Source of the DNA: Pseudothioglobus sp. nBUS_23
GTDB lineage: Bacteria > Pseudomonadota > Gammaproteobacteria > PS1 > Pseudothioglobaceae
Assembly (NCBI RefSeq): GCF_051201565.1
Contig: NZ_CP179200.1
Location: 930,001-962,000, forward strand
DNA: 32,000 nucleotides
Reading direction: 5' to 3'
Shown here: in pieces, positions 9,692 through 23,955 of the stretch
Numbering within the stretch: the first letter of the stretch is position 1
Layout of the letters: each line of letters starts with the position of its first letter
Position numbers and translations under genes: made by a program
Notes under the pieces: model-generated
What the model was told of the DNA's origin: nothing
What the model saw: only the letters and a program-made list of their open reading frames with translations
The model's database searches: none

Positions 9692-9768
9692 GCGCTCGTA
9701 GCTCAGCTGGATAGAGTGTCGGCCTCCGAAGCCGAATGTCGGGTGTTCGAATCACCTCGAGCGCACCA
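9692..9768 (+). tRNA. tRNA-Arg (anticodon CCG), copy 1
   Basis: Hand-folded cloverleaf: acceptor GCGCTCG/CGAGCGC, D stem GCTC/GAGT, anticodon stem TCGGC/GCCGA, loop CTCCGAA, T stem GGGTG/CACCT with TTCGAAT loop, encoded CCA. Confidence 0.9.
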
Positions 9769-9834: not shown

Positions 9835-9860
9835 GAATTTCGTGCAAATTTCGTGCACTT
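9835..9860 (+). repeat. Left copy of 26-bp perfect direct repeat (2 x AATTTCGTGCA); candidate att or arm-type integrase site
   Basis: gaatttcgtgcaaatttcgtgcactt is identical to 23734..23759; lies 14 nt upstream of the integrase ATG. Confidence 0.8.
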
Positions 9861-9874
9861 AATGGAGATTTGAT

Positions 9875-10876
9875 ATGGCAAGCATACAAAAAGTAGTGAA
9901 TAAGAAGGGCGTCTCATATAGAGTTTATATCCGAAGAAAGGGATTACCCAATATTAATAAGACCTTTCCTTATAAGAAGGAAGCAAGAGACTTTATTTTA
10001 AAGATAGAGGAAAGTGAGATAAGTCACAGAGCCTTCAGCTCTAAGATGAACTTTAATACTCTTACAGGGATGTATCTAAGTAACGAGTACCTAGGGACTA
10101 AGCCGCAGATGCAAAGAAGCAGGCTGAAACACTGGCTTAATCATATGGGCGAGATGCCTATTATTGATATCCATAAAGAAGATATTTCTGCAGGCTTGGA
10201 TACGCTTCCTAAAAAGCTTAGCAATGCCACCGTTAATAAATACAAGAAGTTGGCATCCGTTGTCTTTAACTATGGAATCAGAGAGCTAGGTCTAACCGAG
10301 AACCCGACGCGATATATACGCTCTCTGCCTGAAAAGAAGGGAAGGACAAGATATTTATCAGATAATGAGAGAAAACGCCTATTTAGAGCTTGTAGGACTT
10401 CAAAATGGGAGTTGCTCTATCTACTTGTCTTAATGGCAATCACAACAGGAGCGAGGAGGGGAGAGCTACAAAGTTTGAGATGGAATGACATAGATTTTGA
10501 GAAACAAGCTGCTTATGTCAACATTTCTAAAAATGGAGAAGCTAAAGTATTGCCTTTAACGCCCGATGTTATTAATCAGCTTCAATTTTTTAATCAATAT
10601 GATAGTTCTCTAATATTTGGCTCAAAGATTACTCCATCAAAACCTTATGTCTTCTATAAACCTTGGAGGAAGGCAGTGGAAGAAGCAAATCTTGAAGACT
10701 TTAGATTCCACGATTTAAGGCACACTACAGCATCCTATTTAGCTCAAAATGGTGCAACTCTTCTTGAGATAGCAGATGTCTTAGGTCATAAACAAATAGA
10801 GGTGACAAAGCGTTATGCTCATCTCTGCATTGAGCATAAGTCGAGCCTTATAAATAGAGTGATGGGTAGTATTTAG
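9875..10876 (+). CDS. int: Tyrosine recombinase / phage-type integrase with AP2-like N-terminal arm-binding domain
   Basis: Catalytic ARRGEL (R), HDLRHT (HxxR), LGHKQIEVTKRYAH (Y); N-terminal KKGVSYRVYIRRKG; GGAG Shine-Dalgarno 7 nt upstream. Confidence 0.9.
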   Translation: MASIQKVVNKKGVSYRVYIRRKGLPNINKTFPYKKEARDFILKIEESEISHRAFSSKMNFNTLTGMYLSNEYLGTKPQMQRSRLKHWLNHMGEMPIIDIHKEDISAGLDTLPKKLSNATVNKYKKLASVVFNYGIRELGLTENPTRYIRSLPEKKGRTRYLSDNERKRLFRACRTSKWELLYLLVLMAITTGARRGELQSLRWNDIDFEKQAAYVNISKNGEAKVLPLTPDVINQLQFFNQYDSSLIFGSKITPSKPYVFYKPWRKAVEEANLEDFRFHDLRHTTASYLAQNGATLLEIADVLGHKQIEVTKRYAHLCIEHKSSLINRVMGSI

Positions 10877-10924
10877 TATCAGAATAAACTACAATGTTTT
10901 TATACGTATAAATTAATATTTTAA

Positions 10925-12058
10925 ATGGAAGAATGGGAAAATTTTAATTCTCCTGATGAGTGGGAAGAATATTTTGTAAGACAAAAAATACGAAGCAAAA
11001 GGATTCTTAAACCAATTATCGCAAGCAATGAGGAGTTTCAGGGGGAATGGCAAGATTATGTCACCAAATGGCTTGGTGAGCAAATGCTTTACAATGGTGA
11101 TATTGAAGATTTTATAAAAACTGAGATTCATAGCGAAAGAACTGGGATTTTAATCCTCTTCCTAAAGATGCTCATTAAAGACTTTAGTCAAAAAGAACTT
11201 AAATTTTCAGATTTACAAAAAACCTCTGATGCAGATATTTATTTTGAACTAGCACTTGCATTAGCGGATATTAAATATCTATCTAGAAAATCATTAAATG
11301 ATGATGATGTAACTAGGGAAGTTATTGAAGAGGCTACTCGGCTCACATCGAATTATTCTAGACCAATTGAAACCCAAATTGCTGGAAAAAAGTATTCTGA
11401 CTCAAGAATGCTAATTTATCTAGATGATATAGATGCTGCATTGAGTATTTATTTAGAATCTGAAATTAGACATAGTGGAATTGACCTGTTATTCATTACG
11501 CTTTATGCCGACCAAGAAATCATCGCTTATATAGACGCAGCAGGAAAATCCAAATACTTTAAAGATGAACATTCTATGAAAAGCTTATTTAACTCAGATT
11601 TTTCAACCTCATTAGAAAGGGAGGAGGAATCAAAACTTCGAGCTGAAAAAGTATTTAGTAATAATAGTTTTGGAAGTTACAAATATATTGCATTATGGAT
11701 TATTTCTACTGTAATTGTATTATTAATAGCTACAAGCTTGGAGGTAAATGGAATCCTACCTGATGCCTATGGAATTGGGTCTTTATTTCCTATGTTTATC
11801 TTATATATTGTAGTAAGCTTTGTTCTTGGTTCTAATGCTCAAAAGAAACTGGATAATCCTAAAAAATATTTTCCAACATTAACGATGATTAGAAATATGG
11901 AGAATTTTTATTTTGCTATTAGACAAAAAAAACAAATGCTATGGAAAAGGGATGTAAAAAAAGAACTAGCTTTGTTGACAGATGCTGGTGCAGTTATGCC
12001 TGAGGGAATAATGAAAATAATTGCAGATATGGACAAAAGAGACAAAAGGTGGTTTTAA
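10925..12058 (+). CDS. Hypothetical protein: ~250-aa acidic cytoplasmic domain, 2 TM helices, basic C-terminal tail
   Basis: Long ORF; TM segments YIALWIISTVIVLLIATSL and IGSLFPMFILYIVVSFVLG; no motif I recognise. Confidence 0.6.
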   Translation: MEEWENFNSPDEWEEYFVRQKIRSKRILKPIIASNEEFQGEWQDYVTKWLGEQMLYNGDIEDFIKTEIHSERTGILILFLKMLIKDFSQKELKFSDLQKTSDADIYFELALALADIKYLSRKSLNDDDVTREVIEEATRLTSNYSRPIETQIAGKKYSDSRMLIYLDDIDAALSIYLESEIRHSGIDLLFITLYADQEIIAYIDAAGKSKYFKDEHSMKSLFNSDFSTSLEREEESKLRAEKVFSNNSFGSYKYIALWIISTVIVLLIATSLEVNGILPDAYGIGSLFPMFILYIVVSFVLGSNAQKKLDNPKKYFPTLTMIRNMENFYFAIRQKKQMLWKRDVKKELALLTDAGAVMPEGIMKIIADMDKRDKRWF

Positions 12059-12095
12059 AAAACCCTATTCTAAAAAGTTTTCAGGGCTTTAGCAC

Positions 12096-12123
12096 TTGAC
12101 TTTTAAGCTAAATAATATATGAT
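12096..12123 (+). promoter_or_regulatory. Candidate sigma70 promoter for 12228..12982 gene pair
   Basis: TTGACT-16 nt-TATGAT in the 169-bp gap after the 377-aa ORF. Confidence 0.35.
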
Positions 12124-12227
12124 TTAAGTGTAAGAAATAAAAGATTTGTTCACTCAAAGAACTAGGCGGTTGACCTCTATTGTACGCCTTGGGATTTTCC
12201 CTTAAGTACTCAAAAAAGGAGACAGCA

Positions 12228-12740
12228 ATGTCATACCAAAACCAATATAATAAAGACCACTTAGATATCATCATAGGTCCACCTGGACAGGAAAGACTCA
12301 TCGACTCCCTTTATCGTTGTGCTGAAAAGCATAATATGACTATTGATGAAGCCTGGTCAAAGCACGTAGAAAATAGAGCTGATAATCTTATGAAGCCTTT
12401 TTTAAGCTTTGATAGTTTTAGCGATATCTTTACCGCTTTTCTAGGAGAGGAGATTTATGTTCAGGATTACTTTTTAAGTCACTACTATGCTTTTTCTGCC
12501 AATGGGATGCTAATGGCTAGAATCAAAAATCCTGAGGATAGACAAAAATATACAGCACCAGCTCTTAATTTTCAGGCTAAGAACTTGCTTGATGTTAATG
12601 GCAATCCAATCAATATAAGAAGATTTGATTCCGACAGGAGGAAACAATTCCAAGAATTATTTATGCTTATATTTAATGCGAGTTGGGCGTATGTGACTAT
12701 TTCATATGATTATATGTCCATAAAAAAGGGGGCTAAATAA
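12228..12740 (+). CDS. Hypothetical cytoplasmic protein (170 aa)
   Basis: ATG preceded by AAGGAG Shine-Dalgarno (aaaaaggagacagcaATG); the TTG at 12180 in the track is less likely; stop overlaps next start (TAATG). Confidence 0.6.
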   Translation: MSYQNQYNKDHLDIIIGPPGQERLIDSLYRCAEKHNMTIDEAWSKHVENRADNLMKPFLSFDSFSDIFTAFLGEEIYVQDYFLSHYYAFSANGMLMARIKNPEDRQKYTAPALNFQAKNLLDVNGNPINIRRFDSDRRKQFQELFMLIFNASWAYVTISYDYMSIKKGAK

Positions 12741-12982
12741 TGCAAATTGATAAAAATACTCAAGCAGCTTTTTATTTTTATTCAGAGATGGTTAAAGATA
12801 GTCGTGGTTCACGTCCACGTGGTGCAGATGCTGAGTGGTTTGTTTCTTTAACTGAATCTGAAAGACAGGCTGAGATTCAGAGACACATCGATAGCGTTAA
12901 TGAGATGACTGAGTTTCTAGAAGCCGAATACAATGCTGATATTAAATACTTAAAGTCGTTTGGCGATTTTTTGAAAGAATAA
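12740..12982 (+). CDS. Hypothetical small acidic protein (80 aa), translationally coupled to upstream ORF
   Basis: TAATG overlap; no recognised motif. Confidence 0.55.
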   Translation: MQIDKNTQAAFYFYSEMVKDSRGSRPRGADAEWFVSLTESERQAEIQRHIDSVNEMTEFLEAEYNADIKYLKSFGDFLKE

Positions 12983-13054
12983 ACTCTGCATAATGATTAT
13001 GTGAATTGATACAAATAGGTATATTAAATTGTATTTACTTATTAATTGAATTTA

Positions 13055-13480
13055 ATGGATAAATATAACTTAAGTCGCTTCATAGAGGCTCAAGAGACAA
13101 CCTATGAGGGTGCTATGTTGGAGCTTGCTCGGGGCAGAAAAGAGAGTCATTGGGTCTGGTATGTCTTTCCTCAAATCGAGGGACTTGGTAAATCAGATAC
13201 AGCCAAATTTTACTCGATTAAAACTTTAGAGGAGGGCAGGGCTTATCTTGAGCATCCTGTGCTAGGTCCAAGACTCTTTGAGGCTTGCGAAATACTGCTT
13301 AGCCTTAAAGATGCTTCAATGAATAAAGTTATGGGATTTCCAGATGATTTGAAGCTTCTATCCTCAATGACCTTGTTTGAGTATATATTGGATGAAAGTT
13401 CTATCTTTACTAATATTATTGAGGCATATTTTGATGATGAGCGAGATGAGAATACATTAGAGATTATTGATGTTTCGTGA
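13055..13480 (+). CDS. DUF1810 family protein
   Basis: L.RFI.AQ...Y..A..EL..G.K.SHWVWYVFPQIEGLGKS matches the DUF1810 core; ATG at 13055 preferred over TTG at 13046. Confidence 0.7.
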   Translation: MDKYNLSRFIEAQETTYEGAMLELARGRKESHWVWYVFPQIEGLGKSDTAKFYSIKTLEEGRAYLEHPVLGPRLFEACEILLSLKDASMNKVMGFPDDLKLLSSMTLFEYILDESSIFTNIIEAYFDDERDENTLEIIDVS

Positions 13481-13693
13481 TGGAAGTGAAGTTAAAACCA
13501 AGTGCTTACTAGGTGCAGACTTAAGAAGTACAAAAAAATATATAATCAGACTTGAGGCAATTGTATTAATAATAGCCACCTGGGCAAAGTAGCAAACTCC
13601 GCTGCACAATTAGCATTTATTTTATTATGGGTTAATCTACACCATAAATTCATCAACAAAACATAAATCAATTCGTCTTACTTCATAGAATAG

Positions 13694-13790
13694 TAGTGTT
13701 GTTCTCCTAAAACACTAAAGTGAGATTAGATTGAATAGCGGACATTCTCACATCAAAGGTGCCTCTCCTAATTTCCTTTGAGTGTTCGCT
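13694..13790. ncRNA. Two stem-loops with identical TCTCCTAA loop motif (candidate structured RNA or leader)
   Basis: Hairpin 1: 13694-13700/13711-13717. Hairpin 2: inner stem 13753-13759/13775-13781 plus outer stem 13737-13744/13783-13790. The 8-mer TCTCCTAA is in both loops. Confidence 0.25.
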
Positions 13791-13806
13791 ATAAATTTGG
13801 TAACTA

Positions 13807-14001
13807 ATGAAACGACTACTACTACTTTTCTGTCTAACTTCTTTAAGCGTATCAGCCAGTCAAGAACAAATGATGTCAACTATCAATAATATAGCTGAAA
13901 TGACTCAAGAAGAGTATTTGAAAGAAATACTTCAAGCCACGGTATGCAGATGGGAATTAACTGAGGAGGAAAGATTATTTATCGAAAGCTCTTACTTCTA
14001 G
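13807..14001 (+). CDS. Small secreted hypothetical protein
   Basis: Signal peptide MKRLLLLFCLTSLSVSAS; first ORF of the dense array. Confidence 0.5.
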   Translation: MKRLLLLFCLTSLSVSASQEQMMSTINNIAEMTQEEYLKEILQATVCRWELTEEERLFIESSYF

Positions 14002-14135
14002 TTATTTTTTGCTCTCAATCAGTCTTTGCTGACTTAGACCAAGCTATTGCCTATGCTGAAGCAGGTGATGTTAGAAATGGACAAATAGAACTTTATAACA
14101 TTAGCCAAAGAGCACTGGAAGGACAACCCAAGTCG

Positions 14136-14405
14136 ATGTGTGAGTTTGGCACAATGTATAAGAAAGAAGGCTACTGGATTGTTCAGAGTGACAAAGATGC
14201 TTCTGACTGGTGGCTTAAATCAGCAGAAATGGGGTATGCCCCTTGCCAGTTTAATATTGGTGCTGCTTATCTTATTGGTTCAGGCATTGAAAAAGACTTA
14301 TCAAAAGCAAAATACTGGCTTCAACGAGCAATAGATAGCACCTATGAGGAGTTTAGTGAGTCAGCCAAAGTTCTTTATGCAATCCACGAACTCGATAAAT
14401 ACTAA
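14136..14405 (+). CDS. Sel1-like repeat (SLR) protein; frame open back to 13965 and encodes a signal peptide with no canonical start
   Basis: SLR consensus ...A..W..KSAEMGYAPCQFNIGAAYLIGSGIEKDLSKAKYWLQRA; upstream in-frame RKLLLLVIFCSQSVFA/DLDQAIAYAEAGD. Confidence 0.6.
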   Translation: MCEFGTMYKKEGYWIVQSDKDASDWWLKSAEMGYAPCQFNIGAAYLIGSGIEKDLSKAKYWLQRAIDSTYEEFSESAKVLYAIHELDKY

Positions 14406-14587
14406 TGCTAATTCCTATCTTAATTTTTAAGCTATATTTAACTGTTGTTAATTCAATTATTTATGGATTTAGTACTGTTTTGGGCTTATTACTGTTTTCT
14501 ATTGCTGTAAGCAATGCAGATGTGAATCAACATCAAATCTATTGTGAAAAATCAGCTATAGAAGAAGAGGTTTGTGAATCAAGATAA
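14405..14587 (+). CDS. Small hydrophobic protein, family A (member 1)
   Basis: TAATG coupling; paralog of 14603 and 15543 ORFs (hydrophobic N-terminus, YCE.S....C tail). Confidence 0.65.
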   Translation: MLIPILIFKLYLTVVNSIIYGFSTVLGLLLFSIAVSNADVNQHQIYCEKSAIEEEVCESR

Positions 14588-14602
14588 CTCATCATTAGAA
14601 TA

Positions 14603-14788
14603 ATGCATATTCCTGTATTAATCTTACAGTGGTTGGTTTCTATAGCTGATGCAATTATTTATGCAGTTGTTAGCTTCATTGGCATAATCATAGTGGTTAT
14701 CGCTTTTGCTATGGCAGATGGAGATGATTACTGGGCAGAAGGAGGAATGCCACTTCCTGGTGAATCTAAAATTGAATCAACAGACTAA
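14603..14788 (+). CDS. Small hydrophobic protein, family A (member 2)
   Basis: WLVSIADAIIYAVVSF compared with WLVSIAEAIILSVMSF in 15543 ORF. Confidence 0.65.
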   Translation: MHIPVLILQWLVSIADAIIYAVVSFIGIIIVVIAFAMADGDDYWAEGGMPLPGESKIESTD

Positions 14789-14791
14789 CAA

Positions 14792-15004
14792 ATGAATTTA
14801 GATAACCTTTCAGGAGTGCTCTTTATATATTTAGTTTTAGGCTTACCAATTATGACAATAATTGGTGTCATTTTAATCCCTCGTTTTTATTCAAATGAAA
14901 AGTACAAGAATATGTTCAGAGCATTAAGATTGTTTTTTATTATTGTGCTGATTCCTCTTAGCTTTTATATATCTGGAAGTTTGTTAAGTTTGTTGTACGA
15001 TTAG
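14792..15004 (+). CDS. Small 2-TM membrane protein
   Basis: Two hydrophobic helices separated by a basic loop RFYSNEKYKNMFRALR. Confidence 0.55.
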   Translation: MNLDNLSGVLFIYLVLGLPIMTIIGVILIPRFYSNEKYKNMFRALRLFFIIVLIPLSFYISGSLLSLLYD

Positions 15005-15043
15005 ATGATATGAAAAAACTACTACTATCAAAACTTTATAAAG

Positions 15044-15307
15044 ATGGATAGCATTAGACTTTTTAAAATAATTAAGGTTGGACTTATTTTAGTTTTTCTA
15101 TTTATTATTACTTCTTCTTTTTGGGACTGGTTGGCTGAAGATTCAAAAGAAATAAAAGAACTTATAAAGCAGGGTTATCTTCCTTCTGACTATCAGCACG
15201 AAGATATATTTAAATTATGTAACCCTGAGACGGATGAAGAAAAGGTAGCTCTTGAAAAAGCTCCTGATTATTTTTGGACTTGTATGATAAGAGGTGGCTG
15301 GACCTGA
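15044..15307 (+). CDS. Membrane-anchored small protein with GYL..D...C...C domain (family C-related)
   Basis: ELIKQGYLPSDYQHEDIFKLCNPE aligns with QLIERGYLSEDFTTIEYLNFCENIE of 15760 ORF. Confidence 0.6.
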   Translation: MDSIRLFKIIKVGLILVFLFIITSSFWDWLAEDSKEIKELIKQGYLPSDYQHEDIFKLCNPETDEEKVALEKAPDYFWTCMIRGGWT

Positions 15308-15321
15308 TATGAATAACCAAA

Positions 15322-15546
15322 ATGATTAACTTTCTCAATTCAGTTCCGCTTTATCCAGGATGGCTATTTATCTTCTTTTCAGGGTTATTTTTCATAAAAC
15401 TCACAAAGCATCGTAAGCTAGGAAAAGTTATCCTAATTATATTTTCTATCCCTATTTTGTTTATTGTTGCCTCAACGATTTTTGGGATATGGCTAATGGA
15501 GACTAATCCAGGAGTTTTTCCAGGTGGGGAGGCATATACACCTTGA
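15322..15546 (+). CDS. Small 2-TM membrane protein, family B (member 1)
   Basis: HRKLGKVILIIFSIPILFIVA compared with DRRKLGISYLIIFSIPIILFLIA in 18908 ORF. Confidence 0.65.
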   Translation: MINFLNSVPLYPGWLFIFFSGLFFIKLTKHRKLGKVILIIFSIPILFIVASTIFGIWLMETNPGVFPGGEAYTP

Positions 15547-15758
15547 TTACAATCATAACGACAGCTTTTGTCTGGTTAGTATCTATAGCAGAAGCAATAA
15601 TTCTTTCTGTTATGAGTTTCTTTGCAGTCATACTTATGCTCTGGACTTTTACTATGGCTGGAATCTCTGCAGATGAGAATGGACAGCAACTCTATTGTGA
15701 AACTTCTAAAACTGGAGTTGAGAACTGCTTTATGAGGGAATGGAGCATAGTAGATTAA
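15543..15758 (+). CDS. Small hydrophobic protein, family A (member 3); TTG start
   Basis: TTGA overlap with upstream stop; the conserved family region lies upstream of the first ATG, which supports the TTG start. Confidence 0.6.
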   Translation: MITIITTAFVWLVSIAEAIILSVMSFFAVILMLWTFTMAGISADENGQQLYCETSKTGVENCFMREWSIVD

Positions 15759-15759
15759 T

Positions 15760-16056
15760 ATGAACAATGCCTGGACAGAAGAACAAACAAAGGAATCTGT
15801 AAGGAGGCAAAAGAAAGCCCTATTAATCGCAATTCCAAGCATTCCTATAATATTGTTTGCTTTAATGGCAGCATTTGGCTACATTCTCCACCATTGGTTT
15901 ATGGAACCCCCAGAATATCATTTACAAATAGAGCAATTAATTGAAAGAGGATATCTAAGTGAAGATTTCACTACTATTGAATATTTAAACTTCTGTGAAA
16001 ATATAGAGCAGAGCTTATATGACACTTATGATTATGTCTGCCGATGGATTGATTAA
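15760..16056 (+). CDS. Membrane-anchored WTEEQTK-family protein (family C)
   Basis: MNNAWTEEQTKESVRRQKKAL + TM; paralog of 7510 ORF outside the island. Confidence 0.65.
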   Translation: MNNAWTEEQTKESVRRQKKALLIAIPSIPIILFALMAAFGYILHHWFMEPPEYHLQIEQLIERGYLSEDFTTIEYLNFCENIEQSLYDTYDYVCRWID

Positions 16057-16067
16057 AGAAACAAAGT

Positions 16068-16095
16068 TTGACTTTAGTTCATTCTGAAATATAAT
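16068..16095 (+). promoter_or_regulatory. Near-consensus sigma70 promoter placed for a leaderless or very short-leader transcript of 16102 ORF
   Basis: TTGACT-16 nt-TATAAT; -10 ends 6 nt before the ATG at 16102. Confidence 0.4.
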
Positions 16096-16101
16096 CGATG
16101 T

Positions 16102-16527
16102 ATGAAAAAACTACTATTAATCTTGTTACTATCTCTTGGCTTAATTAATTCATCAAATGCTGATTCCTACAAGCCCGGCATTAAAGAATATATGGAGTTT
16201 AAATTCACAGAAGCAATTGAAATACTAAGTCCTCTTGCTGCTGAAGGTGATGATGAAGCTCAGCTATACTTGGGAGTGATATATAGAAATGGTGATGGGG
16301 TTGAGGTAGACAACTTTAAGGCATTTAAGTTCTTCAAACAATCAGCTGAACAAGGTAATGCCTGGTCCCAAAAACATTTAGCTTGGATGTATATTGATGG
16401 AAAAGGGGTTCTTAAAGACTATAAGCAAGCTAAATATTGGTTTCAAATGGCATACGCTAATGATGACCCCTGGATAAGGGAAGATGCAAAAGCTGCTTGG
16501 GATGAGTTAGAACTTTGGAAGTATTGA
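16102..16527 (+). CDS. Secreted Sel1-like repeat protein
   Basis: Signal peptide MKKLLLILLLSLGLINSSNA; AEGDDEAQLYLGVIYRNGDGVEVDNFKAFKFFKQSAEQGNAWSQKHLAWMY.DGKGVLKDYKQAKYWF. Confidence 0.8.
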   Translation: MKKLLLILLLSLGLINSSNADSYKPGIKEYMEFKFTEAIEILSPLAAEGDDEAQLYLGVIYRNGDGVEVDNFKAFKFFKQSAEQGNAWSQKHLAWMYIDGKGVLKDYKQAKYWFQMAYANDDPWIREDAKAAWDELELWKY

Positions 16528-16528
16528 T

Positions 16529-16924
16529 TTGAAGAAAATACTCCTACTAATATTATTATTTTCTTTTTCATCGCACAGTTTAGCAAAGGTGGGTGACAAC
16601 TACTTTTGTCTGATGAAACAATTTATGGATATTACTCCAGACAAAATATATGAAAAGCCATTAGAAGAATTTACTTTTCGAATGGAAGCAGACAAGATTG
16701 TATTTACTGTAGAAAAGGGTTATTTTGCTGGATTTGGTGAATATTTTGAATTGGAGATGTCTGATTATAGGGAATTTGGTTCTGACGAATATCCTAGAGA
16801 ATCTTTCTTTCTCAACAGAGATGATTGGAGAGTGATTAGTGTCTATGATGAAGGTCACTTTAACTATACCTATGTTGAAGGACCTCTTACAAAAACAATG
16901 ATAGCAAGATGCGGCAAGTATTAG
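16529..16924 (+). CDS. Secreted hypothetical protein with N- and C-proximal Cys pair; TTG start
   Basis: Signal peptide (M)KKILLLILLFSFSSHSLA; NYFC....IARCGKY. Confidence 0.6.
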   Translation: MKKILLLILLFSFSSHSLAKVGDNYFCLMKQFMDITPDKIYEKPLEEFTFRMEADKIVFTVEKGYFAGFGEYFELEMSDYREFGSDEYPRESFFLNRDDWRVISVYDEGHFNYTYVEGPLTKTMIARCGKY

Positions 16925-16940
16925 ACAAATTGAATTCAAA

Positions 16941-17387
16941 ATGAAAAAACTACTCCTATTGCTCTTCTCTTTAATGCTTTCCTTTAATTCTTTTGGTGAG
17001 GAGGATTTATCTGAGTATAAACTTCTTGGTCAAAAAACTGTCGTTGCTTTCAAGTGTGCCAATATCGTTACTCATCACGATTACTCTGAAGAAGTTGCTG
17101 TTGAGTGGAATCGTTTATTCAACATTGGAATGAACAGTGGAACAAAGTTGTTAGAGGCAATGAGAAGTGGAATTATTACTCGTGATTTTATGAATAAGCA
17201 TATTCCATATAGGTTGGTGTTAAGAATATCTGATAGTGGAGGCTTATTTAGTAACGACTTCATTCTTGGCGGACTTAATGAAGAGATGTTGTTGGAAGTT
17301 TATGAAAAAGTTGGCGATGCTTCAATAAGAGATACAACATCTAGAAGTATGTATTTAAAGAATAACTGTGCTTTAGTAGGAAATTAA
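16941..17387 (+). CDS. Secreted hypothetical protein with Cys pair
   Basis: Signal peptide MKKLLLLLFSLMLSFNSFG; VAFKC....KNNCALVGN. Confidence 0.6.
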   Translation: MKKLLLLLFSLMLSFNSFGEEDLSEYKLLGQKTVVAFKCANIVTHHDYSEEVAVEWNRLFNIGMNSGTKLLEAMRSGIITRDFMNKHIPYRLVLRISDSGGLFSNDFILGGLNEEMLLEVYEKVGDASIRDTTSRSMYLKNNCALVGN

Positions 17388-17391
17388 TTTT

Positions 17392-17991
17392 ATGAAGAAA
17401 CTTCTCCTCTCTCTATTTGCCAGTTTAGTTCTTATTTCTAACTATAGTAATGCTGAGATAACATCTTTTGATGAACGCTTTACTCTGCTATGTGAAATTG
17501 AAGATTCAACTGGGTTTAATTGGTCTAATGGTAATTGGTATCAAGCCAATTTTAAAGCAGGGCAAAAATATATTATAAAAAAACAGGATGATGAAAAAAG
17601 CGAAGATGCTGATGATTATGACTATGCCAAAGTAAAGAATATGTTCTGTTCTTATGGTCAGGAGGCAGAGTCCGATAATGCCAGTTACATTACTAGAGAT
17701 GGTTGTTATATGATTAAAGAATTTGGTGAAGAATCAACCGCATTTAACTCCAAATTATGCCGTGAAAGGTGGAGTAAAGATAGTCAAGGCTCTTTGAAAT
17801 TAGATAAGGTAGATTGCTCCGTGTGGGGTAACCCTGAAGTGAGGTTTAAACCAAATGGATTGATTCACGTCCACAATCTTGGTAGTTTAGAATCAAGTCC
17901 TAAAGGTGTTATAGATAATGGTGTCACCATAATTCCTCCTGACTACAAAGACTCTATGTATATAGCCTTTGGAAGATGTTCAACTATATGA
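17392..17991 (+). CDS. Secreted hypothetical Cys-rich protein
   Basis: Signal peptide MKKLLLSLFASLVLISNYSNA; FTLLCE....FGRCSTI plus internal Cys residues. Confidence 0.6.
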   Translation: MKKLLLSLFASLVLISNYSNAEITSFDERFTLLCEIEDSTGFNWSNGNWYQANFKAGQKYIIKKQDDEKSEDADDYDYAKVKNMFCSYGQEAESDNASYITRDGCYMIKEFGEESTAFNSKLCRERWSKDSQGSLKLDKVDCSVWGNPEVRFKPNGLIHVHNLGSLESSPKGVIDNGVTIIPPDYKDSMYIAFGRCSTI

Positions 17992-18425
17992 AAAAACTAC
18001 TCCTAATCTTATTTATCTCTCTTGGCATAGTTGGTTGTTCTGAAACTTCACCCCAACAAGTAAAGTTTGATGATGAGTCTTACCAATGGAAGAAGTGGGA
18101 TTGCTTCGCTTATGGTTATGCTGGAGAGTTCATCTTGTCTATTGGTTATATCCCTGAACTTGAACAAGATGGCTATTATGCTGGTAAGTTATTCTTGAAA
18201 GATGCTGAATCTCCAATCGATACAATCTACCAAATGAGAGGTGTTCAACACGAATGGAATTGGGAAGACTATAAAATTAAAATTGACTCTGATGGTACTG
18301 GAAGATATTGGGATTTCTCAGATGACGACGAAGGTGAAATGGTAAATTCTTCTGAAGTTTATGAGTGTACATCTTCGGGTTTTGTGAGTTTTAGTAAGTC
18401 CTTTGATAACTTCTTTTCCTACTAA
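17988..18425 (+). CDS. Hypothetical lipoprotein
   Basis: ATGA overlap; MKKLLLILFISLGIVGCSE lipobox; start at 17988 preferred over 17976. Confidence 0.6.
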   Translation: MKKLLLILFISLGIVGCSETSPQQVKFDDESYQWKKWDCFAYGYAGEFILSIGYIPELEQDGYYAGKLFLKDAESPIDTIYQMRGVQHEWNWEDYKIKIDSDGTGRYWDFSDDDEGEMVNSSEVYECTSSGFVSFSKSFDNFFSY

Positions 18426-18427
18426 TT

Positions 18428-18724
18428 ATGCGTAAGTATCTAATTACTTTTCTTTTAAGTCAAGACGATAAGTTTTACCACGAGGATACAGTTGGTATTG
18501 AGATGGAAGCTAATGACCTGAAAGAACTATTTAATCTTATTGGTGATGTTGAAACTGACGAAATAACTTCATCTAGAATAGTACGAGCAGTAGAAGGAAG
18601 TGGATTGGTATTTGACTCATATGCACCTATAGTGATTGGTGAGTTTAATGAAGATGGGATTCCAATAATTGTTTGGGAAGATAAGGATTACAGATTCAAT
18701 CACGAATCTAGTAATTTACATTAA
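18428..18724 (+). CDS. Small acidic cytoplasmic hypothetical protein
   Basis: ORF only; no signal peptide or TM helix. Confidence 0.45.
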   Translation: MRKYLITFLLSQDDKFYHEDTVGIEMEANDLKELFNLIGDVETDEITSSRIVRAVEGSGLVFDSYAPIVIGEFNEDGIPIIVWEDKDYRFNHESSNLH

Positions 18725-18727
18725 TAA

Positions 18728-18907
18728 ATGCTAAGAATAATAATTTTAGGTCTTTGGATTTTCTGTCTAATTAATGGGATTCAGAGGCTGCGTTCTAATC
18801 GTCAAAAGTCAGGAATAGTCCTTGTATCAATCTTCTTACTTTTTGCTTTAGTTTTGTTTATATCCTTTGCAGCTTTTGACCCAAGGTTTATCAACTATGA
18901 GAACTAA
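18728..18907 (+). CDS. Small 2-TM membrane protein, family B (member 2); 59 aa, absent from the ORF track
   Basis: My translation: MLRIIILGLWIFCLINGIQRLRSNRQKSGIVLVSIFLLFALVLFISFAAFDPRFINYEN. Same TM-RxxRK.G-TM layout as 15322 and 18908; exactly fills the gap between neighbours. Confidence 0.55.
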   Translation: MLRIIILGLWIFCLINGIQRLRSNRQKSGIVLVSIFLLFALVLFISFAAFDPRFINYEN

Positions 18908-19135
18908 ATGCTTTTAATAATCTTCTTAGTCCTTTGGGCATTCACTCTTTTTTATGGCATCAGCCTAATAAGAACTGATAGACGTAAATTAGGTATTTCA
19001 TATTTAATTATTTTCTCTATTCCTATAATTCTTTTTCTAATTGCTGATTGGTTTATTGATTTCTCTTATCTTGATTGTATGTTTAGAGGTACCTCGAATG
19101 CTGCAGAAAGGATGGAGTACTGTAGGTCACTTTAA
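18908..19135 (+). CDS. Small 2-TM membrane protein, family B (member 3)
   Basis: RRKLGISYLIIFSIPIILFLIA paralogy with 15322 ORF. Confidence 0.65.
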   Translation: MLLIIFLVLWAFTLFYGISLIRTDRRKLGISYLIIFSIPIILFLIADWFIDFSYLDCMFRGTSNAAERMEYCRSL

Positions 19136-19139
19136 TACT

Positions 19140-19727
19140 ATGACAATAAGTGAAGAACAGATAGTTATATTGGCTCAAGAATACCTCTCTAAACTGCAAA
19201 GAGCTAATGAAGTAGAATTTGCCACTAGAAAGCCGGGGGTTGGCCAAGACTACTATGATTTTATGGATGGTCTAGAATCTCAGTGCTCTCATCTAGCAGA
19301 TGACTTTAGAATTGGTTATCAAAACAAAGAAGTTGAGGCAGACATAGAGAAAGCACTTAAATCCGCCAATATTAAAGTTGATAGAAACTCTAATGAATAC
19401 AAACTTCTTGTAAGTAAGTTCTTATTTGCAGCTACAGAGGCTTGCTATGAAAGATTGAGTATGTATAAAGGTGATTTTGACTATAAATTAGAAACAACCA
19501 AACTAGCTGCTGAAGAACCACTTATTAAGAAGCAAGCTAAAACACTAGCAATTCAAGAAGAGATTAACAAGATTGCAAAAGAAATAATGGATACATATCC
19601 AACAACACCAAAGTATAACCTTGCCGAGGAAATTGCCGACTTACTTGAAAAAGATAAGATGCATCTAAATCCACCAAAATTTGAAACTATTCGTAAGAAT
19701 TATCTTTCTAAATACCCAAACTTTTAA
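19140..19727 (+). CDS. Hypothetical cytoplasmic helical protein (195 aa)
   Basis: ATG at 19140 is 4 nt after the previous stop; the track's upstream extension from 19041 overlaps the 18908 ORF. Confidence 0.55.
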   Translation: MTISEEQIVILAQEYLSKLQRANEVEFATRKPGVGQDYYDFMDGLESQCSHLADDFRIGYQNKEVEADIEKALKSANIKVDRNSNEYKLLVSKFLFAATEACYERLSMYKGDFDYKLETTKLAAEEPLIKKQAKTLAIQEEINKIAKEIMDTYPTTPKYNLAEEIADLLEKDKMHLNPPKFETIRKNYLSKYPNF

Positions 19728-19887: not shown

Positions 19888-21369
19888 ATGACCATAGAAA
19901 ACAAAAAAAGCACAATAAAGACAGCAGACTCTATGCTAATTGAGTACGCAAAAAAAGAGTGTTGGTTGTTTTGTGATAATCAAAATGAGCCTTATGCAAA
20001 AATTCTAGTTGATAGACATATCGAAACTTGGGGGATACACTCCCAGGGTTTTGGAGACTTGCTGCGAAGTTGGTATTTTAAAAAGACTAAAAGAGGAGTT
20101 AATCAAAGCCAATTAGACAGTGCAATAATGACCATTTCAGCAATTGCTAATTATGATGGCCATCGGGAAGATGTTTATCTTCGTGTTGCTCAAATAGAAG
20201 AAAAAATATACATAGATATCTGTGATAAAAACTGGAGTGTTATCGAGGTGACAAATAGAGGATGGTCTGTCATTGATATTGCTCCTGTAGCTTTTACTAG
20301 AACCAATAATATGAAGCCACTTCCTTATCCAAAAGGCGGAAATGGCGTGAAGTATTTACTAAGGCACATAAATATACAAGAAGAAGAATTGCCTTTACTG
20401 ACTGGATGGCTTTTAATGGCTTTACAGGCTGGAGAGGGGGCTTATCCTTCTTTATTGATAAATGGGCCAGCTGGCTCTGGAAAATCAACAGCTTGCCGAA
20501 TGATTAGGTCTTTAATAGACCCAAATAAAGCAGATTTATTGACTCAACCAAGTATCAGTGATTTAAGAATTGTTGGAATGAATAACCACATACTTGCTTT
20601 TGATAACATTAGTAAAGTTAGTCCAACTTTTAGTGATGCTATTTGTAAAATTTCAACGGGTGATAATCAATCTATTAGAAGGCTATATACAACCAATGGA
20701 GAGATGACAGTTTCAATTAAGAAGCCAACTATTTTGAATGGCATTCCCGAGCTTGCAAAACGAAGTGATTTGGCAAGTAGAAGTCTAAAGCTGACACTAC
20801 AAAAAGTTAAGCACAGAAAAACAGAAAAAGAGGCTTGGGCTGATTTTAATGAAGATGCACCAAGTATTTTAAAGGGCTTACTTACTGGGCTTAGTAGGGC
20901 TTTAGCAAACCTAGAGCATACTGAAATAAATGATATGACTCGAATGGCCGATTTCTGTATGTGGGCTACAGCTGCACATACTGCTTATGGTTGGGATAAA
21001 ACCACCTTTATTAACGCCTATGCAAAGAATGTAAAAGAATCTCACATTGACTCGTTGGAATCCTCCCCTTTTGCTTCTTCTATAGTTAAGATGTGTGAAG
21101 ATGGCAGCTTCTTTCACGGAAGGCCATTAGAGCTTTTAGAGGAAATTGAATCCCAATATTCTTCTACAAAAATTACCCACTCAGTGACTTGGGTTAAGAC
21201 TGCTAAAGGTGTTATTGAACAACTCGATAGAAATGAGGAGTCGCTTGAATCTATTGGTATTTATTATCAAAAGTATAAAGATAGAACAAATAAGACATTT
21301 GTTAAAGTAGGTGACTTAGAGTTTATAAACTCATCTAGTGAGCCAACAACCCCTATTTACGATTTTTAA
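19888..21369 (+). CDS. P-loop NTPase, SF3-helicase / element replication-initiator-like protein
   Basis: Walker A INGPAGSGKST, Walker B-like HILAFDNIS, ~190-aa N-terminal domain; GGGAGAG Shine-Dalgarno; followed by iteron region. Confidence 0.6.
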   Translation: MTIENKKSTIKTADSMLIEYAKKECWLFCDNQNEPYAKILVDRHIETWGIHSQGFGDLLRSWYFKKTKRGVNQSQLDSAIMTISAIANYDGHREDVYLRVAQIEEKIYIDICDKNWSVIEVTNRGWSVIDIAPVAFTRTNNMKPLPYPKGGNGVKYLLRHINIQEEELPLLTGWLLMALQAGEGAYPSLLINGPAGSGKSTACRMIRSLIDPNKADLLTQPSISDLRIVGMNNHILAFDNISKVSPTFSDAICKISTGDNQSIRRLYTTNGEMTVSIKKPTILNGIPELAKRSDLASRSLKLTLQKVKHRKTEKEAWADFNEDAPSILKGLLTGLSRALANLEHTEINDMTRMADFCMWATAAHTAYGWDKTTFINAYAKNVKESHIDSLESSPFASSIVKMCEDGSFFHGRPLELLEEIESQYSSTKITHSVTWVKTAKGVIEQLDRNEESLESIGIYYQKYKDRTNKTFVKVGDLEFINSSSEPTTPIYDF

Positions 21370-21380
21370 TAAATAAAAAT

Positions 21381-21531
21381 TATGCAAGTTGTGTACTTAT
21401 GTGCATAGCTTGCATAGCCAAAATAGCTTAAATATTTAAAATAAATAAATACTAATGCACCAAAAACGCACCCTGAAGCACTTTAATAAAAATAGAGAGT
21501 TTGGTATGTTTTTGCCTATGCAAGCTATGCA
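21381..21531. promoter_or_regulatory. Iteron - AT-rich - inverted-iteron region; putative replication origin of the island
   Basis: tgcatagc x2 (21402-21418) and its reverse complement ctatgcaagctatgca (21516-21531) form a 16-bp perfect inverted repeat flanking ~95 bp of AT-rich DNA; extra tatgcaag at 21381. Confidence 0.45.
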
Positions 21532-21746
21532 GTATTTATTCTATTAATAAGCACTACTCTTAAGGTTTTATTTTGGATTACTTTGGCTGAATAATATAAG
21601 AACTTTAGCAAGTGAAGAAAGCCTTTACTAAGGCTCTAAGGACTCCATATTCATTATTTTAGAGCACTTAAATTACTCAGAAAGTATTGGCCTTATTTAG
21701 TACAAAAAGGAGTTCAAATTAAGTCTTATTCAGGTATAGTTTAATT

Positions 21747-22112
21747 ATGAAAAAAATACTACTTTGTGGCATATTCTTAGGTTTAAGTTTAAGTTCTTAT
21801 GCCGGGGGTTATGTTTGTACTTCCCCAAGTTTTTTTGATGATAGTACTACGATTAATGTGTATCAAAAAACTAGTAATGGTTACTTAGATAAAGAAAGAG
21901 GTGATATGTTTAATGTGAGAGAAAATGAACATCTTTTGTCTATGTCGTACAACACTCTTGATGAGGATTATGGTGCAGGTATTATGGCAGTAGTTATAAA
22001 TAAATCTGAAATGAAATTTATAAAGTCGATGACATTTTTTTTAAAGCCATACGACCCTCCTACAGTATATGACTCAGATTATAGAACTGGGGAATGTGTT
22101 TATGTTGATTAA
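21747..22112 (+). CDS. Secreted hypothetical protein with N- and C-proximal Cys pair
   Basis: Signal peptide MKKILLCGIFLGLSLSSYAG; GYVCTS....TGECVYVD. Confidence 0.6.
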   Translation: MKKILLCGIFLGLSLSSYAGGYVCTSPSFFDDSTTINVYQKTSNGYLDKERGDMFNVRENEHLLSMSYNTLDEDYGAGIMAVVINKSEMKFIKSMTFFLKPYDPPTVYDSDYRTGECVYVD

Positions 22113-22116
22113 CAAT

Positions 22117-22605
22117 ATGAAAAAATATGTCTACGTATTTGCTCTTTTAATAAGCTTACTTGGCTCTTCATTTGTCCACTCTTCAGAAGCATTACTCACA
22201 AAAGGATACAATAAAGCACTTGATGGAAATTATGGTGAGGCATATAGAATACTTCAGCCTTTAGCTTCTCAGGGCTATATTGAAGCACAATTCAACCTAG
22301 GTATGATGTTTCAAAATGGAGGAAATGGACTTCAAAGGAACTATTCAAGTTCGGCATATTGGTTTAACCAAGCAGCACTTCAGGGAGACCAAAATTCACA
22401 ATTTGAGTTGTCTGGTATTTATTACAGGGGGTTAGGAGTTAAAAAAGACCTAAGTCAAGCAAAATATTGGGCTAAATTAGCTTCGCAAGGAAGTAATCCA
22501 ACAATTGCGAGCCGCTCAAGAGAATTCCTAAAGAATCAAATGTCTTGGTGGGAGAAACAAAAGTTAGGAGCCTCTACAATCTTTGGTATTTTTACTGGAA
22601 ATTAA
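22117..22605 (+). CDS. Secreted Sel1-like repeat protein
   Basis: MKKYVYVFALLISLLGSSFVHS signal; ASQGYIEAQFNLGMMFQNG...AALQGDQNSQFELSGIYYRGLGVKKDLSQAKYWAKLA. Confidence 0.8.
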   Translation: MKKYVYVFALLISLLGSSFVHSSEALLTKGYNKALDGNYGEAYRILQPLASQGYIEAQFNLGMMFQNGGNGLQRNYSSSAYWFNQAALQGDQNSQFELSGIYYRGLGVKKDLSQAKYWAKLASQGSNPTIASRSREFLKNQMSWWEKQKLGASTIFGIFTGN

Positions 22606-22618
22606 ACTACTATATCTT

Positions 22619-23215
22619 ATGATTAATTTTATAAACAAGTGGTCAAAAAGGTTTGCAGTGATTTGGCTCATAGGATTTATAGGTATTTTGGCAATTACCT
22701 ATGCAGATTCTATTCAGAACAGCAAAGCTAAATACAGTTGGTGGTCCCCAAAATTTGCAGATATAAACCTTTTCTTACCTTATTCAGTTCAAAAGTCTTT
22801 AAGCTCCAACAATAGAGCTGCGTGTATAGCAAAAACAAACTTCCCTTTTGAACGCACAGTTATCGGTTATAGAAAACATACACTCGAGGGAACATTTTTG
22901 AACTGTGAGCCTGGAAAAAGTCATAGGGCAACAGAGTATTTGTTTATTTTATTAGTACCCTTTATTGGTCTTAACTATGTCTTACCTTGGCTTACAAGAG
23001 TGCTTGAAGGCGCAGGTAAAAATTATAAATCTAGTGCAAAAAAAGCCAAGGTCAATACAGAAAAGAATTACCTAATAGCTTATAAAGAAGTTGAGAGTGG
23101 GAAAATTAAAAGTCCAGAATTATGGGCCAAAGCATTTGCTGAAACTGAAGGCGATGAGGTCAAACAAAAAGCTCTGTATGTAGAATTAAGAACAAAGCAG
23201 CTTGATGATAATTAA
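22619..23215 (+). CDS. Membrane protein with C-terminal EVESG...WAKA...GDE..K.KALY motif
   Basis: ATG at 22619; 2 TM helices; C-terminal motif shared with next ORF. Confidence 0.55.
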   Translation: MINFINKWSKRFAVIWLIGFIGILAITYADSIQNSKAKYSWWSPKFADINLFLPYSVQKSLSSNNRAACIAKTNFPFERTVIGYRKHTLEGTFLNCEPGKSHRATEYLFILLVPFIGLNYVLPWLTRVLEGAGKNYKSSAKKAKVNTEKNYLIAYKEVESGKIKSPELWAKAFAETEGDEVKQKALYVELRTKQLDDN

Positions 23216-23239
23216 GTAGAATTTTGATATAGTTGAAAT

Positions 23240-23647
23240 ATGGGAATTAAAGACGTATTCAATCAAGCACCTTCACCTGAAGAAGAAGCATTATATAAGC
23301 AAGTTCTTGATGAAGTTGAATCAGGTGTAATGCGGAAAGGAATCTACGCTAAAGCATTAGCTGATGGTTTGGGAGATGAAGGTAAAGCACAGTCTCTTTA
23401 TATTAAATATAGAGTTCAATCTTTAGTAGATGAACAAAGATTGAAAGCTAAACAACTAGGCATAGAGCTTGCTGAAAAAGAAAGATATAGGAAGGCAACA
23501 GAAGAGGCTGAAGCGCTTAGAAAAAGAGCTGAGTTTGATGCAGAATTTGATAATTCACACGCTGGAAAACATTTTTATAAATATTGGTATGGAATTCTCT
23601 TAATTCTTGGCCTTGGTATTTTGATTTATGGTGACGTAATTTTCTAA
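23240..23647 (+). CDS. Tail-anchored protein with N-terminal EVESG...AKA...GDE motif and coiled coil
   Basis: N-terminal motif, KAKQLGIELAEKERYRKATEEAEALRKRAE coiled coil, C-terminal TM YGILLILGLGILIYG. Confidence 0.55.
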   Translation: MGIKDVFNQAPSPEEEALYKQVLDEVESGVMRKGIYAKALADGLGDEGKAQSLYIKYRVQSLVDEQRLKAKQLGIELAEKERYRKATEEAEALRKRAEFDAEFDNSHAGKHFYKYWYGILLILGLGILIYGDVIF

Positions 23648-23733: not shown

Positions 23734-23759
23734 GAATTTCGTGCAAATTTCGTGCACTT
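23734..23759 (+). repeat. Right copy of 26-bp direct repeat (2 x AATTTCGTGCA)
   Basis: Identical to 9835..9860; a degenerate extra unit aatttcggcct lies at 23721. Confidence 0.8.
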
Positions 23760-23878: not shown

Positions 23879-23955
23879 GCGCTCGTAGCTCAGCTGGATA
23901 GAGTGTCGGTCTCCGAAGCCGAATGTCGGGTGTTCGAATCACCTCGAGCGCACCA
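23879..23955 (+). tRNA. tRNA-Arg (anticodon CCG), copy 2
   Basis: 76/77 identical to copy 1; the single C-to-T change turns the C31-G39 pair into U-G, so the cloverleaf is preserved. Confidence 0.9.

Follow-up and report, generated by a model that had tools for sequence, protein, structure and literature searches.

The replication origin of staphylococcal pathogenicity islands (SaPIs) consists of 6-12 iterons located immediately downstream of the rep gene. Its centre is AT-rich and is flanked on either side by two or more iterons, the two sets running in opposite directions; the SaPI Rep protein recognises these iterons with a C-terminal winged helix and loads itself onto the DNA, with no separate loader (Qiao et al. 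2022, PMC9371898). A second class of islands, the tycheposons, was defined in Prochlorococcus, and tycheposon-related elements have been reported in Gammaproteobacteria (Hackl et al., bioRxiv 10.1101/2020.12.28.424599). That text mentions no origin for these elements; the word "origin" occurs in it three times, in one passage with reference to the chromosomal origin. The present work deals with a stretch of 32,000 nucleotides of the genome of Pseudothioglobus sp. nBUS_23 (contig NZ_CP179200.1, positions 930,001 to 962,000; hereafter the window), and in particular with an open reading frame (ORF) of 493 amino acids (aa), here called Rep, and the DNA directly 3' of it. The NCBI product name of this ORF in the source genome is "hypothetical protein". 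An initial annotation, made from the sequence alone, had proposed a replication-type module in which a P-loop protein of superfamily 3 (SF3) type is followed by an origin-like region of iterons, AT-rich DNA and inverted iterons. Analysis of the protein, of its relatives and of the surrounding island indicates that the region is likely to be the replication module of a 14.2-kb integrative island at tRNA-Arg(CCG), built as a SaPI-type replicon. By mechanism, the Rep/ori system of SaPIs (Qiao et al. 2022, PMC9371898) is the closest described system. Direct support comes from the SF3 fold and motifs of Rep, from iterons that are conserved and linked to Rep, from purifying selection on Rep, and from the boundaries and the presence/absence polymorphism of the island.

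The AlphaFold model of Rep, made from an alignment of 37 sequences, is confident (pLDDT 88, pTM 0.84). It consists of an N-terminal alpha/beta domain (about residues 1-170), an ATPase core (about residues 180-340) and a C-terminus (about residues 410-476) with the order helix-helix-helix-strand-strand, as in a winged helix. Residues 413-475 form the best-conserved part of the C-terminal third among relatives sharing the iteron. The three-tier fold is the same as that of the SaPI proteins, with a predicted winged-helix-like unit at the C-terminus, and the best PDB match of the model in Foldseek was SaPI5 PriRep (7ola, E 1.7e-9). Further top matches were the NrS-1 helicase region (6lrb), SCCmec Cch (5dgk), PrimPol of African swine fever virus (8iqi), SaPIbov1 Rep (8tch), PriRep1 (7pds) and E5 of monkeypox virus. 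The top 50 PDB matches were SF3 or primase-helicase entries throughout (E 1.7e-9 to 1e-6, probability 1.00), with TM-scores of 0.4-0.6 that were put down to differing domain orientations. In the viral structure library BFVD the two top matches were an uncultured Caudovirales protein (TM 0.84) and the DNA helicase of Microbacterium phage Zeta1847, followed by Prim-Pol, Toprim, VirE and D5 proteins.

The ORF and the two motifs singled out in the initial annotation were checked and found in place, with the Walker A motif GPAGSGKST at residues 193-201 and the Walker B-like ILAFDN at residues 235-240. G196 and K199 of Walker A and D239 and N240 of Walker B are invariant in the 37 sequences. Following the known SF3 sequence pattern, a conserved stretch C253-x-x-x-T257-G258-D259...R264, in which R264 is invariant, may be named as B'-like, the invariant N284 is a candidate for motif C (sensor-1 Asn), and the conserved R292 and R298 are candidate arginine fingers; R298 and also D294 are invariant. 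Rep is under purifying selection, with dN/dS values of 0.08-0.13. Searches with the sequence gave only P-loop signals: Pfam returned AAA_16 and nSTAND_NTPase5 below threshold, limited to the P-loop, and no SF3 family (D5_N, DUF5906, VirE), and in the PDB neither sequence nor profile searches went beyond the P-loops of ABC transporters and RFC. The NCBIfam model TIGR01613 (C-terminal region of P4-family primases) reached 16 bits against a cut-off of 108.7, and PHROGs yielded nothing useful. Among the searches run, the family of Rep was resolved by the fold search only. Since fold and motifs match and no curated model does, Rep is a member of the SF3 superfamily outside every curated family. The initial annotation had named clear homology to a non-replicative ATPase family, for example a defence ATPase, as a point that would speak against its reading; PADLOC defence models gave zero matches at E values up to 0.01. 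It was concluded that the ORF is an SF3-type initiator-helicase without its own primase domain. The earlier label "SF3-like" is thus borne out by structure prediction, by the Foldseek matches to SaPI5, NrS-1, Cch, PrimPol and E5 proteins, and by relatives fused to primases.

A homologue search with Rep found 192 relatives. Those of 30-40% identity are longer and carry an N-terminal Prim-Pol domain, Prim-Pol together with PriCT_2, or a DnaG-type zinc ribbon with Toprim. An exhaustive search (E up to 1e-3) extended the family to 17,739 cluster representatives at 50% identity. A long N-terminal extension is present in most of them, and the best are mostly 600-1000 aa long, with the match to Rep in their C-terminal part. 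Small plasmids also carry relatives of Rep. On the circular 12-kb archaeal plasmid pH6Ac of Methanothrix harundinacea (NC_016637.1) a relative of Rep is the only large ORF (1124 aa; locus L203, 1608-4982); it has a weak Prim-Pol signal at its N-terminus and a helicase module 31% identical to Rep of the window. Members of the Rep family are thus found in archaea as well as bacteria, and also on free plasmids. No convincing iterons were found in the region downstream of the pH6Ac replicase.

Immediately 3' of rep, where SaPIs have their origin, the window holds the 377-bp non-coding region described in the initial annotation; it is indeed free of ORFs (21370-21746). The repeats reported there were recovered as well, namely TGCATAGC-T-TGCATAGC at 21402-21418, the inverted CTATGCAAGCTATGCA at 21516-21531 and an extra TATGCAAG at 21381. 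The repeat unit is a 9-bp iteron, TGCATAGCT, of which the first copy begins 11 bp past the rep stop codon. In order, the region contains two degenerate inverted iterons, two direct iterons, 96 bp of AT-rich DNA and two inverted iterons (Table 1), and the first four (21380-21397 and 21402-21418) make up a compact head-to-head palindrome of the kind found in most relatives. As in SaPIs, short iterons thus stand in two opposite sets of at least two around AT-rich DNA, both in the window and in several sub-lineages. The iteron of the window differs in having 9 bp and abutting its neighbour, whereas SaPI iterons are penta- or hexanucleotides. The inverted repeat reaches further than had been described: a repeat finder gave 22-nt arms (21402-21423 and 21510-21531), 95% complementary and 86 nt apart. 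A perfect inverted repeat of 16 nt with a spacer of at most 200 nt is unique within the 32 kb and was seen in 0 of 100 Markov simulations, so that chance does not account for it. Exact copies of TGCATAGC number three in the window, and none of them falls outside this 130-bp stretch. The spacer had been called very AT-rich. This holds for the stretch beside the left iterons, since the first 37 bp (21419-21455) are 89% AT (99.7th percentile); the whole spacer is only moderately so, its 74% AT corresponding to the 95th percentile of 96-bp windows in DNA of 64% AT overall. GCACC repeats had also been noted in the spacer. They are present at 21457 and 21468, with a GCAC following at 21478, yet even relatives with 98-99% protein identity have not kept them; they were rejected as an origin element and taken as chance.

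The octamer was mapped relative to the stop codon in 80 metagenomic loci encoding relatives of 41-98% identity (loci used for comparison are numbered with the prefix L). With one mismatch allowed, its density was 8.6 per kb over the first 350 bp past the stop and 0.77 per kb elsewhere, an 11-fold enrichment that is found with relatives of 47-100% identity, nearly all of which have an iteron within about 60 bp of the stop codon. In the raw sequences the TGCATAGCT units stand head to tail with a 9-bp period, in both orientations, starting about 10-40 bp past the stop. Most often the layout is a compact palindrome in which two minus and two plus copies stand head to head. The subgroup of the window and a few others at 53-55% identity have in addition a distal minus pair beyond 86-177 nt of AT-rich DNA, and three or four tandem copies on one side occur in L097, L109 and L144. 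In some relatives every copy has a variant unit (TGCATGACT, TGCATAACT or TCCTAGCTT); such variants change on both arms together, as with TCCTAGCTT in L157.

Alignment of the loci of close relatives gave a phylogenetic footprint, with both arms invariant and the intervening DNA diverged; the left plus pair (21402-21418) is invariant in two alignments (A4 and A7). Comparison with L083, whose Rep is 86% identical (dS about 1.0), showed 33 of 34 identical positions in the four strong iterons, against 61 of 107 in the spacer and 80 of 171 in the downstream DNA. The identity of the iterons thus holds where synonymous sites are saturated. A profile search of genome contigs returned only Rep relatives of 30-38% identity, from other phyla. 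At least four exact copies of some 8-mer were present in the 300 bp after the gene in 10 of 69 of these, compared with 26 of 3247 control windows. Each lineage has its own repeat, frequently with a period of 9 bp. With distant relatives having repeats of their own at the same place, the architecture appears as a property of the family and the repeat sequence as dependent on the lineage. The origin proposed in the initial annotation, with iterons, AT-rich DNA and inverted iterons 3' of rep, therefore gains support from an iteron kept at 47-100% identity next to a spacer that decays, and from the match to the SaPI layout.

Loci in which parts of the island have been exchanged show what the iterons travel with. 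L083 has the same Rep lineage and the same iterons, together with an integrase that is only 23% identical, a different accessory gene and an additional HTH_17 gene. The reverse is seen in the sister island L202 (ENA ERZ26051151), next to tRNA-His, where the integrase is 58% and the accessory protein 77% identical to those of the window. Its rep slot (10796-12874) is occupied by a 692-aa primase-helicase with Prim-Pol, PriCT_1, D5_N and DUF5906 domains, and no TGCATAGC cluster was found in L202. Genes adjoining the relatives of Rep are of five different kinds, for tRNA-Arg, tRNA-Thr, tRNA-Asn, tRNA-Leu or tmRNA. These comparisons tie the iterons to Rep; their presence follows neither the integrase nor the accessory protein, nor the site of integration. 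L202 and the window also differ in that one replication protein has been swapped for an unrelated one within a conserved island backbone.

Table 1 Features of the replication module and of the island that carries it (positions in the window)
Feature	Position	Strand	Evidence or remark
tRNA-Arg(CCG), left copy, attL	9692..9768	+	ARAGORN; Rfam 65.9 bits; upstream flank identical to empty sites L192, L194
Tandem 11-bp repeat AATTTCGTGCA x2, putative integrase arm-type site near attL	9836..9857	+	
Tyrosine integrase, 333 aa, inward-facing	9875..10876	+	Pfam Phage_integrase E 1.3e-30
Cargo, about 25 small ORFs: Sel1-repeat, small membrane/secreted proteins, DUF1810	10925..19135	+	
Accessory gene, 195 aa from ATG at 19140, directly upstream of rep	19140..19727	+	
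Rep, predicted SF3-type initiator-helicase without primase domain	19888..21369	+	AlphaFold fold, Foldseek, invariant residues, dN/dS
Degenerate iteron pair TTATGCAAG, TTGTGTACT	21380..21397	-	13/18 identical to L083
Tandem iteron pair TGCATAGC(T), 9-bp period	21402..21418	+	17/17 identical to L083
AT-rich spacer, putative DNA-unwinding region	21419..21514	.	74% AT; 61/107 columns identical to L083
Tandem iteron pair CCTATGCA, GCTATGCA	21515..21531	-	16/17 identical to L083
Right-hand cargo: secreted 121-aa protein, Sel1-repeat protein, 210-aa and 135-aa proteins	21747..23647	+	
Second AATTTCGTGCA pair, putative integrase arm-type site near attR	23735..23756	+	
tRNA-Arg(CCG), right copy, attR	23879..23955	+	Downstream flank chromosomal

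The "island" of the initial annotation is a real insertion. An empty tRNA-Arg site is present in all 10 of 10 related contigs encoding an identical flanking ABC-transporter protein, with a DUF4396 gene, one tRNA-Arg and a cytochrome b561 gene in direct succession. In alignment the empty site equals the left flank of the window joined to its right flank, and the insertion therefore measures 14,187 bp, including a tRNA 5' part of its own. A look-up by the cytochrome b561 flank found only a contig that breaks at the tRNA. At attL the 5' part of the tRNA and the upstream flank are chromosomal, while at attR the 5' part and the region upstream of it, including about 25 nt of similar upstream sequence, are derived from the island. 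The island thus carries a complete replacement tRNA-Arg(CCG), whose 5' part heads the right-hand gene copy after integration. The right copy has one C-to-T change, which turns a C-G pair of the anticodon stem into U-G. A division into tandem islands separated by a partial tRNA was considered and rejected, as nothing apart from the two full tRNA copies matches the 3' end of the tRNA and the gene order of the window recurs in L202. The 333-aa protein is named tyrosine-type recombinase/integrase by NCBI. Perfect copies of AATTTCGTGCA number four in the window, two at each island end (chance expectation 0.82 matches with one mismatch allowed), and a 26-nt stretch spanning the repeat has a perfect match in the relative L090. 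After circularisation these pairs would flank the att core, like arm-type sites of integrases.

In its general build, about 15 kb with a tyrosine integrase, the island resembles SaPIs; it differs from them in its host, a marine gammaproteobacterium, and in lacking detectable packaging genes, a pri gene and a primase domain. By gene layout and tRNA site it fits the published definition of tycheposons (Hackl et al., bioRxiv 10.1101/2020.12.28.424599). Features shared with the elements described there are integration at a tRNA, an inward-facing tyrosine integrase at one end, cargo between integrase and replication module, a streamlined marine bacterial host, and relatives that keep the replication module while using different tRNA or tmRNA sites. 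The replication module lies at the opposite end from the integrase in the window and beside it in L083 and L001. Differences from that description are the host, Prochlorococcus in the definition, and the complete tRNA copy carried by the island, which does not leave a partial one. Gram-negative phage-inducible chromosomal islands (PICIs), P4-like satellites and marine virion-encapsidated integrative mobile elements (VEIMEs; PMC9618062) are of a similar size class. The order int, alpA, primase/helicase, cargo is found in relatives of the island, and the relative in Candidatus Thioglobus autotrophicus (L001, CP137633.1) has a type I restriction-modification system as cargo, a further point of likeness. 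In that genome the system is complete (HsdR, HsdS and HsdM; 11632-17441 of L001) and directly follows rep. In contrast to these satellites, the window has no alpA and a helper phage is not known, the island yielded neither a terminase small subunit nor a capsid or packaging-redirection gene, and viral contigs in IMG/VR hold only Rep relatives of 29-34% identity. Comparison of the island ORFs with PHROGs and Pfam gave no match to terS, ppi, capsid, scaffold or terminase, although very divergent genes could escape such a search. The initial annotation had likewise seen no recognisable packaging or transfer genes, and none were found with either database.

From these data a replication cycle can be proposed in which the island would replicate autonomously. 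The integrase would excise the island as a circle. The winged-helix-like C-terminal domain of Rep would recognise the 9-bp iteron TGCATAGCT directly 3' of its own gene, and Rep would bind the oppositely oriented iteron pairs on the excised circle. AT-rich DNA next to or between the iteron pairs would then melt, upon which self-loading Rep could assemble as hexamers and unwind the circle. Synthesis would be carried out by the host DNA polymerase III. Priming is probably a task of the host DnaG primase, because Rep lacks a primase domain and the search for a primase gene elsewhere in the island found none.

It is possible, though doubtful, that the functional unit is the compact four-iteron palindrome abutting the rep stop and not a bipartite origin as in SaPIs. 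In most relatives no other iteron cluster was found within the 350 bp that follow the stop codon. SF3 initiators such as large T antigen of SV40 and E1 of papillomaviruses bind four short head-to-head sites beside AT-rich DNA, a geometry shared by the compact palindrome of most relatives, although the likeness is an analogy only and the origin-binding domain of the viral proteins is of a different kind. If the compact unit is indeed the origin, it would be a minimal core origin with SV40/papillomavirus geometry, on which a primase-less SF3 initiator would assemble head-to-head and borrow the host primase. Rep with about 50 bp would then be a self-contained portable replicon, across about 17,700 unannotated bacterial Rep clusters.

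Several observations weigh against a SaPI-type replicon. Similarity of the Rep sequence to characterised SF3 families lies below every curated threshold; to the SaPI Reps there is no detectable sequence homology, and structural alignments with them give an identity of 9-11% only. The C-terminal winged helix is read from predicted secondary structure only. No primase gene and no recognisable excisionase were found in the island, and the HTH_17 (AlpA-like) gene that lies upstream of rep in L083 and L001 is missing from the window. Many relatives differ from SaPIs in having only the compact four-iteron palindrome, without an AT-rich centre. In L001 the rep stop and the convergent hsdR are 42 bp apart, a gap filled by four iterons whose pairs are not parted by an AT-rich spacer. 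Not every member of the family, then, has an AT-rich centre. Lastly, the ori region folds better than shuffled sequence (z = -3.8), and its proximal copies form a stable 17-bp RNA hairpin directly after the stop codon.

The folding result is also what an alternative explanation would build on, in which the palindrome is an operator, serving autoregulation by Rep or another protein, or a hairpin of the rep mRNA, and the element replicates only passively with the chromosome. The many relatives with the compact palindrome alone, one of them confined to a 42-bp intergenic gap, are compatible with such a role, and the coordinated change on both arms in L157 is also expected of an RNA stem. It is nevertheless unlikely. 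The ori region contains no intrinsic-terminator pattern and no U-tract, and a search of it against Rfam gave no family, for which reasons an RNA element was rejected as the leading interpretation. At 47-100% protein identity the octamer sequence itself is conserved, beyond what pairing asks for. The copy numbers are asymmetric, with three to four tandem units on one side in L097, L109 and L144, and the second inverted pair stands at a variable distance of 86-177 nt across AT-rich DNA. In iteron replicons, binding sites of the initiator often autoregulate rep as well, so that an operator role would leave room for an origin role.

A replicon now lost is a further alternative: the module could be the relic of an active ancestor, in an island that no longer excises or replicates itself. 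The missing HTH_17 (AlpA/Xis-type) gene upstream of rep, the apparent absence of a primase and the degeneration of the two proximal minus-strand iterons would agree with this. Yet Rep is full length and remains under purifying selection (dN/dS 0.135 against a relative of 98% identity). No damage is seen in the four strong iterons, the integrase, the two att copies or the putative arm repeats, and since all ten related contigs lack the island, its insertion is recent. Gene order without HTH_17 moreover recurs in L093 and L202. Taken together this makes a relic improbable.

Sites of recombination and of packaging, too, typically contain inverted and tandem repeats, and those of the island might serve integrase arm binding or packaging (pac/cos) instead of replication. 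This is very improbable in view of iterons that accompany Rep despite integrases of 23% identity and five different adjoining genes, and that are gone from L202, which keeps the integrase lineage and has another Rep; in addition, a different repeat, AATTTCGTGCA, occupies the island ends where arm sites are expected, and no terminase or capsid gene was found. That the ORF is a non-replicative P-loop NTPase (STAND/AAA+ defence or ABC-type) and the repeats are coincidental is hardly credible, since the sub-threshold AAA_16 and nSTAND_NTPase5 signals and the ABC-transporter matches span only 30-60 residues around the P-loop, and, although a cluster member bears the name EcfA2 in one source, the fold of the protein as a whole is that of SF3 primase-helicases, primase fusions occur among its relatives and PADLOC gives no match.

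Between rep on one side and the integrase or the cargo on the other there is always a conserved accessory gene, in the window as well as in L083 (4161-5042), L094 (548-1345) and L001 (8776-9531). L202 has the same succession of integrase, cargo, accessory gene and rep slot, which shows this order to be normal for the lineage. The accessory proteins are 195-293 aa long (265 aa in L094, 293 aa in L083) and share an N-terminal helical domain; the longer ones have an extra C-terminal region that is conserved between L083 and L094. The 195-aa protein has 164 homologues, none of them named by any source, and its AlphaFold model (pLDDT 78) contains helices only. Searches of the accessory proteins against Pfam, PADLOC and PDB folds gave no match. 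The protein might be regulatory. It was rejected as the missing primase, being all-alpha and without a PDB fold match.

No phage, transfer or defence families were found in the cargo with Pfam, PHROGs and PADLOC, and L202 has a similar cargo block in the same position. Among the cargo genes are paralogous tiny predicted membrane proteins, encoded by ORFs at 14405, 14603 and 15543, and a second family at 18728 and 18908. In the regions 14405-14788, 15543-15758 and 18728-19135 these are interspersed with Sel1-repeat and signal-peptide proteins. At 12155-12224 on the plus strand the aptamer of the SAM-V riboswitch (RF01826) is matched over its full length (model positions 1-66), with 38.9 bits, just short of the gathering score of 41. 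This aptamer-like element includes a Shine-Dalgarno segment, AAAAAGGAG, 4 nt before the ATG at 12228 that starts a 170-aa cargo gene.

What is new here is the iteron and origin layout, in a Rep family that is uncharacterised and unmodelled; the design is the one expected for this class of elements, and known biology is extended by it and not overturned. A function is proposed for a protein named "hypothetical" by NCBI that lies beyond the models of Pfam and NCBIfam and belongs to a family of thousands of clusters. For the tRNA-targeting islands of the SUP05/Pseudothioglobus group, whose members are abundant in the sea, the region 3' of rep is a candidate cis-acting origin of replication, and the rep-ori cassette of about 2 kb is a candidate for the construction of replicating vectors in these organisms. 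The module also offers a handle on the question whether tycheposon-like cargo islands amplify after excision before they spread.

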